From the UHGV virus genome UHGV-0120943: a stretch of DNA of 33,468 nucleotides, one strand, 5' to 3'. Source of the DNA: a virus. Numbering within the stretch: position 1 is the first letter of the stretch; each line of letters opens with the position of its first letter. The position numbers were made by a program, and so were the translations under genes. This document shows, one piece after another, positions 5,868 through 10,782 of the stretch. Under the pieces are notes generated by a model that searched no databases, was not told the origin of the DNA, and saw only the letters and a program-made list of their open reading frames with translations.

Positions 5868-6503
5868 ATGAATGGTTTTTACGACGACTGGCCTGAAACG
5901 TTCGTCACCCGACTGGACATGTTGCGAGCGCTGGATAACAGAGGGGCAACCCGGAGACTCTACACAAAACGTACAGGGGCGATTTACAACGCGCTGGCTG
6001 ACGAGGTTCGTGATGCCGTGGCTGGATTCAATACCAGTGAACTCGACTTAGGACCACTCTACCGGTATTACAAACGTGGAGGAGAGGGCGAAGTGCTGGC
6101 AGACACACTGATCGCACTGGCACCGCCTGTGTGCAGGCGCGTAATGATTTCCCCTGACGTATATACAATACCGTACCTGTTTTTTGCGCTGTTGATAGCG
6201 CGAGGAGAGGACGACGATGCACGTGATTTTTTCAATATGATGATGCGGCCGCTAATCGTGGCGTACCGGTTCAAACAACTGGCGCGTTACCTGGGAACAA
6301 AGGGCGGAGGGAGGCCACAGCACAGGCTTAAAGACGAGGCATTACAGATTGCAGAGGTTTTTTTCACAAATAACCCCCACGCACGGGTTAGTGCGGCGGT
6401 GGCACGTATTAACGAAATTCTCGTAAAAAAATATGCGGACGTTCCGGCGGAATCAACAATCAGAAAATGGTTAACCCCTGTTTATGGAAATGAAAAAAAA
6501 TAA
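5868..6503 (+). CDS. Hypothetical prophage protein
   Basis: Track ORF starts at TTG 5838; ATG at 5868 has a GGGGA Shine-Dalgarno 6 nt upstream. No family recognised. Confidence 0.6.
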   Translation: MNGFYDDWPETFVTRLDMLRALDNRGATRRLYTKRTGAIYNALADEVRDAVAGFNTSELDLGPLYRYYKRGGEGEVLADTLIALAPPVCRRVMISPDVYTIPYLFFALLIARGEDDDARDFFNMMMRPLIVAYRFKQLARYLGTKGGGRPQHRLKDEALQIAEVFFTNNPHARVSAAVARINEILVKKYADVPAESTIRKWLTPVYGNEKK

Positions 6504-7503: not shown

Positions 7504-7793
7504 AAAAAATCGACCTGAGAAAAGCTGCACGTGGTCGCGCTTGTACTGTGCGTATCCCCGGTGTGTGCAATCACAAGCCTGAAACCAGCGTACTGGCTCA
7601 TTATCGTCTCGCCGGAACGTGCGGCACAGCCATCAAACCTCACGATATGCAGGGCGCTATCGCCTGCAGTGCGTGTCACGATGCCATCGACGGACGTACA
7701 AAAACGGATTACGAGCGTGATTCCTTATTACTGATGCACGCTGAGGGAGTTTTCAGAACACTGGCTATCTGGCGCGATGAGGGGGTTATCTGA
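7500..7793 (+). CDS. Cys-rich nin-region protein, YbcO/DUF1364-like
   Basis: 97-aa ORF, ATGA overlap with the upstream gene; conserved cysteines (CTVRIPGVCN ... IACSACHDAIDGR). Confidence 0.6.
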   Translation: MKKIDLRKAARGRACTVRIPGVCNHKPETSVLAHYRLAGTCGTAIKPHDMQGAIACSACHDAIDGRTKTDYERDSLLLMHAEGVFRTLAIWRDEGVI

Positions 7794-8464
7794 TGAATAA
7801 CGAGTATTTATTGGAATATACCCGCATAAAACTGCGCGCTGCATTGCGGAATTTGTCTGGTGGTTCTAAGGGGCAACTGGAAGCATTGTGTGAGCACCCA
7901 CCGGCAGACAAAAACGCATACCCACGCAAACATATTCACCGTGTGCAGCTGGAGGACCGGACCGTTGATGCTCTGGTTACGCCAGTTTACGCTCTGGAAA
8001 GTTTTAGCAGACGTCGCCCCGCGCCGCCGATGAATGATTTTGAATTTGCTGATTCATCCTGGCGGCGTTCTGTGAACTCGCTGGATGCAAGTCAGCAAGC
8101 GTGGTTGCGTTATTGCTACGGTGGTAACCTGGCGTTCAAACACCAAACAGCTATTTGTGAGGCTGTCTGGAGTCGCTATAAAGGACACATCCCCGCGTCA
8201 ACTCAGAGAAAAGTAGTTAAGCGCCTGCTTTCGTTGGTGTGGTTGTCCGTGCAGGCGGTTGCAGCAGCAAATAAACGCGAGGATTTTAAGGAGATGGCCG
8301 GGTCTGCGCTAGCTGGAATGTTGTCTGTTTCTCGTTCCACCTGGTGCGAAACATACTCCCCGCACTGGGCAGGAATGAAAGAGGCGGTGAGAGCACTTGA
8401 TGAAATGGCACTTCTTGCAACTTTGCATCATTATCAGAACCATTTAGACGACGTTTGCGTATAA
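7793..8464 (+). CDS. Putative late-gene antiterminator (Q-like)
   Basis: 223-aa ORF at the end of the nin region, immediately before the lysis cassette. Call is positional; no motif verified. Confidence 0.45.
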   Translation: MNNEYLLEYTRIKLRAALRNLSGGSKGQLEALCEHPPADKNAYPRKHIHRVQLEDRTVDALVTPVYALESFSRRRPAPPMNDFEFADSSWRRSVNSLDASQQAWLRYCYGGNLAFKHQTAICEAVWSRYKGHIPASTQRKVVKRLLSLVWLSVQAVAAANKREDFKEMAGSALAGMLSVSRSTWCETYSPHWAGMKEAVRALDEMALLATLHHYQNHLDDVCV

Positions 8465-8532
8465 TGCTTGCAAAACCGAACAAAATAGACCATATTTAAC
8501 GCTAATTTGGTATGTTGCCAAATTTCTAAGAA

Positions 8533-8560
8533 CCTCGCCACGGCGGGGTTTTGTCGTTTC
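8533..8560 (+). terminator. Intrinsic terminator in the Q-holin intergenic region (tR'-like)
   Basis: CCUCGC-CACG-GCGGGG (one G-U pair) followed by UUUUGUCGUUUC, 17-45 bp before the holin start. Confidence 0.45.
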
Positions 8561-8576
8561 TGAATCAGGAAAAATC

Positions 8577-8960
8577 ATGTCTGAACCTCTAACCGCTGGC
8601 GTTGCTGCTGGCTCGGCGGGGGTGACGTTTGCTGCGTTATTTCCTGAGGCAACACCTGCAGTGATGATCTGTGCGCTGGCAGGCGCAGCTCTCTATGTGT
8701 TGTCATCCGGGCAGCATCGATTCTGGAAGCAGGTTATTTTCGCACTCATTTCGTTTGTTGGCGGTGTGTATTGCGCTGAGACAGCGTCAGCAATCATTAC
8801 CGGTATTCTGAATGCGATGCTGAGTCACCTGAACCCTCCCGTAACAGTAAAAGTCTCTCCCGCCATTGGTGCACTGGTTGCATCAGTAATCAGCGTTACA
8901 TCACTGTTGCGGATCATGTCACAAGCTCGTTTATGGAAATCAGATAAGGGGATGAAATAA
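8577..8960 (+). CDS. Putative holin
   Basis: 127-aa protein with several hydrophobic helices, first gene after the Q region. Confidence 0.6.
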   Translation: MSEPLTAGVAAGSAGVTFAALFPEATPAVMICALAGAALYVLSSGQHRFWKQVIFALISFVGGVYCAETASAIITGILNAMLSHLNPPVTVKVSPAIGALVASVISVTSLLRIMSQARLWKSDKGMK

Positions 8961-9235
8961 TGACCCTGCACTCTGTCCTCATCAATGCCAATGCAATTAT
9001 CTGTCTGATGCTGGCACTGCGGTTAATGTTTTTTCAAAAAACAGGCCGCTATCGTTTTTTCATCTCACTAACTGCTTACCTGGCGATTCTGTCTGCTGCG
9101 TGGATAGCCCTACGAATTTTTTACGGGAAATATACGCAGGTTGATCCCGCAGAGTTCTTTCTCAACCTCACCATCTGTATTGCTGTCTGGCGGGCACGAG
9201 GGAATATTTCAAAAATAACAGGAGACAGGTCATGA
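8960..9235 (+). CDS. Holin-like/antiholin-like small membrane protein
   Basis: 91-aa protein with about three hydrophobic segments; 1-nt overlap with the upstream gene. Confidence 0.5.
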   Translation: MTLHSVLINANAIICLMLALRLMFFQKTGRYRFFISLTAYLAILSAAWIALRIFYGKYTQVDPAEFFLNLTICIAVWRARGNISKITGDRS

Positions 9236-9714
9236 CCGATCCTAAATGGCTAATTGAGGCTCGAAAAAACCTCGGCATTCGGGAAATGAAAGGGAAGCAA
9301 CATGCTGCAGAAATTGTGCAGTACTGGAAAGATATTAAACGCGGCGGTATTAAGGATGACGAAACACCATGGTGCGCCGCCTTCACCGGAGCAATGCTGG
9401 AACGTGTTGGTATTCGCTCAACGCGTTTTGAGTCTGCGAATTCTTATCTCGATTGGGGTAATGAACTGAAGGAACCCGCCTATGGATGCATTGCTATTCT
9501 GTCTCGGTCTGGCGGTGGTCACGTTGGCTTTGTTGTCGGGAAAAATGCCGCCGGGGATTTAATGATTTTGGGTGGTAACCAGGCAGATGAAGTAAATATC
9601 AAAGCTTTTTCTCGTTCCCGCATAACAGGCTATCGCTGGCCTGTTGATGTGCTGGATGTGCCGTCAACCTTGCCGCTGCTGATGGGAGGTGAATTATCAA
9701 CTTCGGAGCAGTAA
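9232..9714 (+). CDS. Putative endolysin, TIGR02594-like CHAP/NlpC-P60-type peptidase
   Basis: 160-aa ORF with candidate catalytic Cys (ETPWCAAF) and His (GGHVGFVVG), plus LGGNQAD. Sits at the endolysin position. Confidence 0.65.
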   Translation: MTDPKWLIEARKNLGIREMKGKQHAAEIVQYWKDIKRGGIKDDETPWCAAFTGAMLERVGIRSTRFESANSYLDWGNELKEPAYGCIAILSRSGGGHVGFVVGKNAAGDLMILGGNQADEVNIKAFSRSRITGYRWPVDVLDVPSTLPLLMGGELSTSEQ

Positions 9715-9716
9715 CC

Positions 9717-9908
9717 ATGAAAAAGTTCTTTCTACTGGCAGCGTTGGTGCTTGCGGGTTGCTCAAACACGACGTACACGGAAGCAACGCATCCCAACGGC
9801 ACGACCGTAAAGCACATTTCTATCGCACCGGGTACGAAGATCACAACCGCAAGTGGTGGCTGTATCGACTCTACCGGGGCTGCGGCTTCATGCCCATTGG
9901 ATCAATGA
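9717..9908 (+). CDS. Small lipoprotein (possible o-spanin/Rz1-like)
   Basis: 63-aa ORF with signal peptide and lipobox LAGC. No partner i-spanin recognised. Confidence 0.5.
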   Translation: MKKFFLLAALVLAGCSNTTYTEATHPNGTTVKHISIAPGTKITTASGGCIDSTGAAASCPLDQ

Positions 9909-10107
9909 GGGTAATTGGCATAGGCAATTTAACCGTATAAGTGCGCCTTCACCGGCTTCCTGCAAATAAGTGCATTTCGTAATTTATAAAGTTCTAAGAA
10001 GCAAGTCCATAAGCTTAACATTACAGCACAAACGATCTGTTTTTAGTTCTATGGGTGTTCTCTTTTTTCGGGAATATATTTTAGTAACCAGAATTAAATT
10101 CTAAAAG

Positions 10108-10131
10108 GCCTCGCAACTGCGGGGCTTTTTT
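10108..10131 (+). terminator. Rho-independent terminator
   Basis: GCCUCGC-AACU-GCGGGGC followed by TTTTTT. Confidence 0.55.
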
Positions 10132-10284
10132 ATATCCGTATTTCGCTGCGCACCGCATGCGCATATCAACCACCGAACCAGACCCTTTGGAATGAGCCGT
10201 TGAGGATGTCAGTTAGTGCTGGCGAGCCTCGGTGGGCTGACTTCCTATGCGGCAACGGTTCATCTCAAAGAGTAGGTACACGCT

Positions 10285-10782
10285 ATGAAATCATTAACCC
10301 TCTTCAATCAACCAATCCGCGTCGGGGATGATGGCATGATCTGCCTCACCGACATGTGGAAAGCCAGCGGCAAAAGTGACGCTGAATCGCCGTACCACTA
10401 TCTGCGAAACAAGCAGACAAAAGAGTTCCTGGCCGAGCTGGAGAAAAACCACGAATCTGTGGTTTTCACTGCCCGCGGCGTACACGGCGGAACCTATGGC
10501 GGGAAGTTTGTTGCTTACGATTATGCGGCTTGGTTAAACCCAGGGTTCAAGTATGCAGCCTATAAAGTACTCGATGACTACTTCACCGGAGAGCTTCGGC
10601 ATCGTAATAGCTTAAGTGCGCAGCTCAACATGAAGTGTTATGAGTTTGACCAGAAGAAAGACATGGCGAGCTTCTGTGGGCAAGGACTCGCGGCATGGCG
10701 TTATACAAAGCCTGTGCTGATCGCTGAGATGAACACCTTGGCAAACCAACTGCAGATTACGCTCCCTGGACTTCCTGGATGA
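10285..10782 (+). CDS. KilA-N domain protein
   Basis: 165-aa ORF; N-terminus LTLFNQPIRVGDDGMICLTDMWKASGK resembles the KilA-N/APSES-type domain common in prophage accessory genes. Confidence 0.6.
   Translation: MKSLTLFNQPIRVGDDGMICLTDMWKASGKSDAESPYHYLRNKQTKEFLAELEKNHESVVFTARGVHGGTYGGKFVAYDYAAWLNPGFKYAAYKVLDDYFTGELRHRNSLSAQLNMKCYEFDQKKDMASFCGQGLAAWRYTKPVLIAEMNTLANQLQITLPGLPG

Follow-up and report, generated by a model that had tools for sequence, protein, structure and literature searches.

The route by which phages without a recognisable spanin pass the outer membrane has been a long-standing question since spanins were defined. To our knowledge, only one alternative to spanins is known, the disruptin of phage phiKT. 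In this E. coli phage the outer-membrane step is performed not by spanins but by one small protein, gp28 (bioRxiv 10.1101/515445). Among surveyed phages of Gram-negative hosts, about 87% encode a recognisable spanin and about 13% do not (PMC6139136). The described spanins are either two-component, as in lambda Rz/Rz1 and in DUF2514 (phrog_312) proteins with an embedded outer-membrane subunit (o-spanin), or unimolecular (u-spanin), as in T1 gp11. The virus genome UHGV-0120943, a stretch of 33,468 bp that was analysed at full length and is referred to here as the window, carries a four-gene lysis cassette at 8577-9908. Its last gene (9717..9908, + strand) occupies the spanin slot and encodes a 63-aa prolipoprotein. 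The reading favoured here, with a probability of about 0.5, is that this lipoprotein may be a partnerless lysis factor for the outer-membrane step that replaces the spanin.

The N-terminal signal of the lipoprotein covers residues 1-14 (MKKFFLLAALVLAG) and leads into a lipobox, LAGC, of which Cys15 is the lipid-bearing residue; the mature protein thus begins CSN…, with Ser16 at position +2. Both lipobox and signal confirm the last gene of the preliminary description, which was made from the DNA letters alone and had called it a 63-aa lipoprotein. A residue other than Asp after the lipidated cysteine predicts Lol-dependent sorting to the outer membrane (the +2 rule). Asp is absent from position +2 throughout the family, whose members have Ser, Thr or Ala there, and an outer-membrane location is therefore predicted. 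The gene starts after a 2-nt gap from the endolysin stop codon, with GGAG 9-12 nt upstream of its ATG, and no promoter-like site was found upstream of it. In other loci the junction between endolysin and lipoprotein genes is instead an ATGA-type overlap.

A search of 5.8 billion proteins yielded 58 homologues of 57-84 aa, mostly 61-69 aa, and those with a named source all come from Escherichia, Salmonella or Citrobacter. Among 1.84 billion cluster representatives, an exhaustive HMMER search with the family profile gave only 13 matches, two of them artefacts; the large proteins P0066 and P0069 were rejected because the profile had matched their repeats (WD40-like and Ig-like strand-turn-strand motifs). 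The mature domain comprises 49 aa (Cys15-Gln63) and contains a conserved Cys49-x9-Cys59 pair, which family-wide takes the form Cys-x7-9-Cys. Its consensus reads C-T-H-T-T-Y-T-E-A-T-R-A-D-G-S-T-V-K-H-V-A-I-A-P-G-T-K-I-T-T-A-x-G-G-C-I-D-S-T-G-A-x3-C-P. Signal peptides are free to vary, save for the invariant G14 and C15, while the mature domain is nearly invariant, its C-terminus being the most variable part. Over the first 40 mature codons, the ratio of nonsynonymous to synonymous substitution rates (dN/dS) has a median of 0.065 in 112 pairs, with dN between 0.08 and 0.21 and synonymous sites saturated. The low ratio and the saturation together mean that this is a real gene, whose protein product is kept by strong purifying selection, and that no second gene is hidden in another frame.

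No family in Pfam, NCBIfam, PHROGs or PADLOC matches the lipoprotein past its signal peptide: the best PHROG match, the Cor family phrog_1119 (E 0.005), covers residues 1-18 only, and none of the PADLOC models reaches E<=0.1. The lipoprotein is encoded in only one of 50,697 deposited phage genomes, while among 5,426 complete E. coli genomes at least 439 (about 8%), ST131 included, have DNA homologues. RefSeq treats the product as a 'hypothetical protein' or leaves the gene uncalled, and the annotation pipeline PGAP omits it both in the copy of E. coli GF43 (locus L002) and in strain D217-5. Literature searches by protein accession, by phage 705R4 and for lone or orphan o-spanins found nothing on the family. 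The lipoprotein thus belongs to an undescribed, narrowly distributed and strongly conserved family. An AlphaFold2 (AF2) model contains four short strands at a predicted local confidence (pLDDT) of 59, and on this basis the mature domain is probably beta-rich.

One explanation to be weighed is that the lipoprotein serves as the outer-membrane subunit of a spanin of two components, with an inner-membrane partner (i-spanin) encoded at a distance in the prophage or supplied by the host. Its topology, its size of about 60 aa and its place at the end of the cassette fit an o-spanin, as do the conserved periplasmic cysteines, which many o-spanins share (PMC6139136); widely separated partners would, moreover, escape detection (Kongari et al., PMC6139136). 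Like the Rz1 class it has the outer-membrane lipobox signal, and it lacks the cognate i-spanin that this class requires. Type-II membrane proteins of 70-260 aa were sought by a scan for hydropathy and lipoboxes that took in each open reading frame (ORF), from each possible start codon, on the two strands of the window, and none of i-spanin size was credible. What the scan returned was an internal start of the holin with three transmembrane segments (3TM), a gpU-like tail protein and unconserved antisense ORFs, and the only other lipobox ORF (31775-32194) lies far off in the tail region. A six-frame scan of the window and 15 related loci for an embedded or overlapping Rz likewise gave holin internal starts or unconserved ORFs. 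Comparison of 14 homologous loci showed no alternative frame over the lipoprotein gene to be consistently open. Two ORFs that lie over the gene in the window, one of 83 aa in the +2 frame (9689-9940) and one of 81 aa on the minus strand (9599-9844), were rejected as unconserved in other loci, with synonymous sites saturated. The preliminary description had recognised no i-spanin partner and had considered an Rz embedded in an alternative frame; re-annotation of the window in all frames gave no Rz/Rz1 pair, and no conserved frame that could hold such an Rz.

Beyond the window, an all-frame scan of 15 neighbourhoods found neither an i-spanin nor a second Rz1-like ORF within 3 kb. In metagenome contexts added later, no ORF of at least 50 aa matched reference spanins in a check by BLAST only, and in locus L078 no spanin was seen among the ORFs of at least 55 aa in a list read by eye. 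Because one and the same mature domain occurs in unrelated phages, any partner encoded by the phage would need to be conserved and to be transferred along with it, and none was seen. The C-terminus, which in Rz1 is the site of contact with the i-spanin, is where the family varies most. The mature domain is also not Pro-rich, is predicted to be beta-rich and is near-invariant, whereas Rz1 proteins are highly diverse, and it has no similarity to spanin PHROGs. An o-spanin with a distant or host-supplied partner is consequently improbable.

The u-spanin T1 gp11 resembles the lipoprotein in being the product of a single gene at the cassette end, with a lipobox at its N-terminus and a periplasmic domain that is predicted to be beta-rich (PMC6139136). 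Unlike gp11, which has a C-terminal transmembrane domain (TMD; …VVCWILVFIVLLLFYFLI…), the lipoprotein has no hydrophobic segment after its signal peptide and is half as long. Homology between the two was rejected at an hhalign probability of 2.4%. Lone lipoprotein genes have been noted before, in 31 phage genomes that have a lipoprotein gene and no linked type-II membrane protein (Kongari et al. 2018, PMC6139136). Those cases share with the present one the lack of an i-spanin; they are, however, isolated observations in scattered phages, whereas the family to which the lipoprotein described here belongs is conserved, keeps a fixed position and resides in genetically tractable prophages of E. 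coli and Salmonella.

The view that the lipoprotein stands in for a spanin draws above all on cassettes of like architecture in other hosts. In Enterobacter kobei (L062) and Cedecea davisae (L063/64), genes for Holin_8, Holin_3_7 and TIGR02594 proteins occur in the same order as in the window, with an endolysin 65% identical. In these loci the slot after the endolysin is filled by a DUF2514 protein with an N-terminal TMD, which belongs to phrog_312 "Rz-like spanin" (E 2.9e-46), and an ORF embedded in its gene in the +1 frame encodes a lipoprotein with a Pro-rich mature part. Aeromonas phage PhAER-2 has an endolysin that is again 65% identical, followed by embedded Rz/Rz1. A parallel case involves another endolysin family: the M15_4 endolysins of 9NA and P88 are 63-67% identical to that of the Salmonella prophage L013 and are followed by Rz-like or DUF2570 genes, in place of which L013 has the lipoprotein. 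Because homologous cassettes carry canonical spanins in the slot, the cassettes of E. coli and Salmonella appear to be variants that acquired a single small lipoprotein gene in exchange for a two-gene spanin. The same comparison supports the preliminary description where it had suggested that the spanin function may be non-canonical or absent.

Exchange within E. coli is marked by a mosaic junction in the window (9641..9716, + strand). Megablast matches to the common E. coli cassette (EC28/ST131-type) stop at query position 1242, which is position 9641 of the window. This breakpoint falls inside the endolysin gene, at residue 137 of the protein, directly after the last residue of the TIGR02594 domain (136). 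The C-terminal tail of the endolysin thus forms a single exchangeable module with the lipoprotein gene, and this tail of 24 aa varies together with the lipoprotein variant.

About 60 loci with the lipoprotein family were sorted into about 15 distinct neighbourhoods, in all of which the gene is the last of the lysis cassette save in L040, a degraded remnant, and L039, which is holin-less. The TIGR02594 endolysin is found both with the Holin_8/Holin_3_7 pair and with an unrelated "MPH…" holin (phrog_126), and the latter also accompanies a Peptidase_M15_4 endolysin. Peptidase_M15_3 endolysins occur with a lambda-S-like holin and, in a BPP-1-like podovirus prophage with the cassette between portal and capsid genes, with Phage_holin_3_3; BPP-1 itself was set aside as a direct comparator, its own lysis genes being located elsewhere and of another type. 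Finally, GH24 lysozymes of two unrelated lineages (L020/L033 and L078) also precede the lipoprotein gene, which rules out a specific tie to peptidase endolysins. The lipoprotein-bearing cassettes thus include four unrelated endolysin types (TIGR02594, M15_3, M15_4 and GH24) and at least four holin types, in phages with contractile, non-contractile and short tails. At least four kinds of lysis cassette have the lipoprotein in the spanin slot, which makes it a directly testable candidate answer to the problem of spanin-less phages in E. coli.

The same neighbourhoods bear on a different explanation, in which the lipoprotein is an accessory 'moron' that rides the late lysis operon, the cassette having lost its spanin or never having needed one. 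The moron would act either in superinfection exclusion or receptor masking, like T5 Llp or Cor, or in host fitness, like lambda Bor. In lambda the lipoprotein moron bor adjoins the lysis genes, and this precedent speaks for such a role. Further in its favour, anti-defence genes (Acb2/Tad1-like and Tad2-like) and antirepressor genes beside the lipoprotein gene mark an accessory hotspot, and one locus (L008) has two diverged copies of the lipoprotein. A near-invariant mature domain would also suit the binding of a conserved host surface protein. Against this, the linkage to lysis genes has been kept through saturated synonymous divergence, through four endolysin and several holin families, and through three tail types, whereas exclusion lipoproteins track the receptor specificity of the phage and not its lysis genes. 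The gene lacks its own promoter and is coupled to that of the endolysin, there is no PADLOC match, and the PHROG match to Cor is limited to the signal peptide. Given that about 87% of surveyed phages of Gram-negative hosts have a recognisable spanin, a gene independent of lysis would be expected beside spanins often, yet in none of the about 15 neighbourhoods is the lipoprotein beside one. A moron role is regarded as less likely than replacement of the spanin, to which it is the main rival.

Several observations weigh against the proposed replacement of the spanin as well. The region after the lysis cassettes is a hotspot for accessory genes, namely Acb2/Tad1-like, Tad2-like and Rha/ANT genes; these adjoin the lipoprotein gene, and in L014 and L020 they lie between endolysin and lipoprotein. 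A frequent Klebsiella prophage with an MPH holin and a TIGR02594 endolysin has neither the lipoprotein nor a spanin within 3 kb, as would also suit a moron. Vi01-like phages, which are on the published list of spanin-less phages (PMC6139136), were found here to have TIGR02594 homologues, and TIGR02594 cassettes may be able to do without a dedicated outer-membrane protein in the slot. The mature domain has about zero net charge, is not amphipathic-cationic and is without similarity to any known lysis or membrane-active protein, and its low-confidence model reveals no mechanism. The sole deposited "phage" record apparently stems from a study of prophages in clinical isolates.

A third explanation accepts a place for the lipoprotein in lysis with a role other than outer-membrane disruption, for example in the periplasm as a modulator of the timing of lysis or of the breakdown of the wall, or in shielding the progeny from envelope debris. 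The conserved position in the lysis operon would agree with this, and recent work has described extra factors hidden in lysis cassettes, for example Lcc6 in LambdaSo and the releasin of Mu. However, four mechanistically different endolysins and several holins make a specific regulator of any one of them unlikely, and in homologous cassettes the lipoprotein replaces the spanin genes and does not supplement them. This explanation is held to have only a slight chance of being correct.

The first steps of lysis are well supported by family membership: the two holin-family proteins would permeabilise the inner membrane and so release the cytoplasmic TIGR02594 cysteine peptidase, which would cut the peptides of the peptidoglycan. 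If the lipoprotein does replace the spanin, it would be made late, from the same transcript as the endolysin and probably in translational coupling with it; it would be lipidated at Cys15 and sorted by the Lol system to the inner leaflet of the outer membrane. With the wall gone, it alone would break or fatally weaken the outer membrane, in place of Rz/Rz1. The action of the lipoprotein in this scheme is inferred from comparative data. As it has neither an inner-membrane anchor nor a phage partner, the bridging and fusion mechanism of spanins is impossible for it. Since the mature domain is near-invariant across unrelated phages, its sequence suggests that the target is a conserved component of the host envelope, or the membrane itself, and not a co-evolving phage partner.

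Precedents for such an action come from outside the spanins. Colicin release or lysis lipoproteins (bacteriocin release proteins, BRP; Pfam Lysis_col) are small enterobacterial lipoproteins of about 45-50 aa, which need no partner of their own to permeabilise the outer membrane. They offer a precedent for a lone lipoprotein that disrupts the outer membrane, and are analogues rather than relatives: they are plasmid-borne, SOS-regulated and encoded outside phage lysis operons. Homology was rejected, as hhalign against an alignment of seven plasmid genes paired the signal peptides only (19 columns, probability 68%), and a search of Pfam, including Lysis_col, gave no match at E<=1. The disruptin of phiKT is likewise an analogue and not a relative, since gp28 is described as similar to a cationic antimicrobial peptide, while the lipoprotein is about neutral, lipid-anchored and predicted to be beta-rich. 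Exclusion lipoproteins (T5 Llp, Cor) and lambda Bor share with it the character of small phage outer-membrane lipoproteins with a disulfide, some of them near lysis genes. Their mature domains are dissimilar to that of the lipoprotein, and their genes are associated with the receptor or tail module of the phage or are transcribed from separate promoters, in contrast to the lipoprotein gene, which follows the endolysin gene across three tail types.

Taken further, the comparison leads to the tentative proposal that the lipoprotein might found a third class of phage outer-membrane lysis proteins. Members of this class would be partnerless and Lol-sorted, would substitute for the spanin without bridging to the inner membrane, and would move as a single-gene module between unrelated cassettes, because they would act on a conserved component of the Escherichia/Salmonella envelope. 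The cassettes amount to a natural experiment, in which the same holin-holin-endolysin arrangement has Rz/Rz1 in some hosts and a single lipoprotein in others. Moreover, the family resides in prophages compatible with E. coli K-12, where complementation of lambda Rz/Rz1 amber mutants is routine. Should the lipoprotein be sufficient for the outer-membrane step, it would constitute a new and very small disrupting module and would probably point to a conserved vulnerability of the envelope. Should it not be sufficient, it would still be an unannotated, strongly conserved prophage lipoprotein that annotation pipelines often miss.

The other three genes of the cassette are of known kinds. As the preliminary description had proposed for 8577-9908, all four ORFs are present on the + strand, with junctions that overlap or leave 2 nt: the ATG of the second overlaps the stop codon TAA of the first, and the second and third meet in an ATGA overlap. 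The first (8577..8960, + strand) encodes a 127-aa multi-pass membrane protein of the Phage_holin_8 family (PF16931, 44.4 bits against a gathering threshold, GA, of 26.4; phrog_198 holin, E 2.5e-34), in which a hydropathy scan located hydrophobic segments at residues 28-44, 53-69 and 89-105. The second (8960..9235, + strand) encodes a 91-aa 3TM membrane protein of the Phage_holin_3_7 family (PF05449, 67.7 bits, GA 25.4; phrog_217 holin, E 2.9e-31), which may be a second holin or an antiholin. Both have the Pfam gathering score, the hydrophobic segments and the endolysin neighbour of holins, and both families are labelled 'putative' holins. These two holin-type proteins are ordinary members of known families.

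The third gene (9232..9714, + strand) encodes a 160-aa soluble endolysin with the predicted papain-like fold of NlpC/P60 and CHAP proteins. Residues 6-136 align to positions 2-132 of the 132-position TIGR02594 model of NCBIfam at 140.9 bits (cut-off 70.55), while the score against Pfam CHAP, 25.7 bits (E 1.6e-5), is just below the GA of 26; most homologues carry a precomputed PF05257. Among 42 homologues C48, H97, N116, Q117 and D119 are invariant, and from this alignment Cys48 and His97 are candidate catalytic residues. The AF2 model built on the 42 homologues has a mean pLDDT of 86. In agreement with an alpha+beta papain-like fold, for which a conserved Cys (N-terminal helix) and His (beta-strand) are typical, its best Foldseek matches in the PDB are MepS, LytE, RipB, CHAP-K and Tse1 (probability about 1.0, TM 0.45-0.54), all of them NlpC/P60 or CHAP papain-like peptidoglycan peptidases; the match is at the level of the overall fold. 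A sequence search of the PDB gave no relatives. The profile score above cut-off, the invariant Cys and His and the structural matches uphold the earlier assignment to a peptidase rather than a glycosidase. A hydropathy scan detected no transmembrane segment, no signal or signal-anchor-release (SAR) segment and no hydrophobic N-terminus, so export depends on the holin. The endolysin is thus predicted to be a cytoplasmic papain-like cysteine peptidase that cuts peptidoglycan peptides, a prediction well supported by family membership.

Such a peptidase endolysin is ordinary, not unusual. By tblastn, 587 phage records contain relatives, among them ICP1 as well as Vi01-like and Pseudomonas Kakheti25-like phages. 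Free-standing TIGR02594 proteins of about 140-175 aa are labelled 'baseplate hub subunit and tail lysozyme' in the genomes of hundreds of phages. These labels arise because the C-terminal part of phrog_1259, a long profile, matches TIGR02594 proteins, and it is only this part (positions 987-1143 of 1179) that does so. The labels are probably a systematic mis-annotation.

The window runs from early genes to tail genes; a prophage of E. coli GF43 matches it at 98% identity and a metagenome contig at 95.5%. Its other genes include those for a GpA-type large terminase, a tail sheath and a GPD-like baseplate hub protein, which identifies a temperate myovirus-type E. coli prophage. Immediately upstream of the cassette lies the gene for a Q-type late antiterminator (7793..8464, + strand; Pfam Phage_antiter_Q, E 3.4e-37), whose RefSeq relatives are labelled 'bacteriophage antitermination protein Q'. 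Between it and the first lysis gene is a terminator-like GC hairpin with a T-run (8529..8552, + strand; 10 pairs, 5 of them GC). In position this hairpin is comparable with lambda tR', through which polymerase modified by Q continues transcription, as we infer from its location. A Q gene with a hairpin directly upstream of the lysis genes is the standard arrangement of late operons under Q control, and the cassette is read as such an operon, transcribed from a Q-controlled late promoter. A short mosaic segment directly follows the cassette: about 190 bp that precede a KilA-N gene (window 10104-10290) are 85-91% identical to the region of the terminator and upstream of rha in ES18, P22 and many Salmonella phages, and include the hairpin GCCTCGCAACTGCGGGGCTTTTTT, an annotated terminator in ES18. 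The lipobox ORF in the tail region (31775-32194, + strand) encodes a 139-aa lipoprotein with the lipobox LVGC, which belongs to phrog_890 'lipoprotein' (E 2e-52) and matches no Pfam or PADLOC model. Its gene, preceded by a GPD-like tail gene and followed by a Bro-N gene on the reverse strand, is likely a moron at the prophage end.

The only near-identical copy of the cassette in an E. coli genome is that of GF43 (L002, NZ_CP172127, 3178-4655), in which an IS3-family element is inserted in the Holin_8 gene. Anti-defence genes are present at the end of the lysis cassette in L008 (4001-5004), L013 (4210-4446), L014 (3501-3986) and L057 (2131-2592). Acb2/Tad1-hairpin-like genes are found directly after the lipoprotein gene, a Tad2-like gene between the endolysin and lipoprotein genes, and an AcrIF11-like gene in the Klebsiella cassette. 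In L008 the two diverged lipoprotein copies flank the Acb2-like gene, beside an IS605 TnpB. In an IMG/VR prophage (L035), a gene for an unrelated 82-aa lipoprotein (phrog_902; 6157-6405) begins 4 nt after the lipoprotein gene. The spanin cassette of Cedecea davisae (L063/L064, 1829-3465) is located among non-phage genes, encoding a GDSL lipase, YCII, TonB and a ShlB-type transporter, an arrangement that resembles holin/endolysin-based type 10 secretion systems more closely than a prophage.

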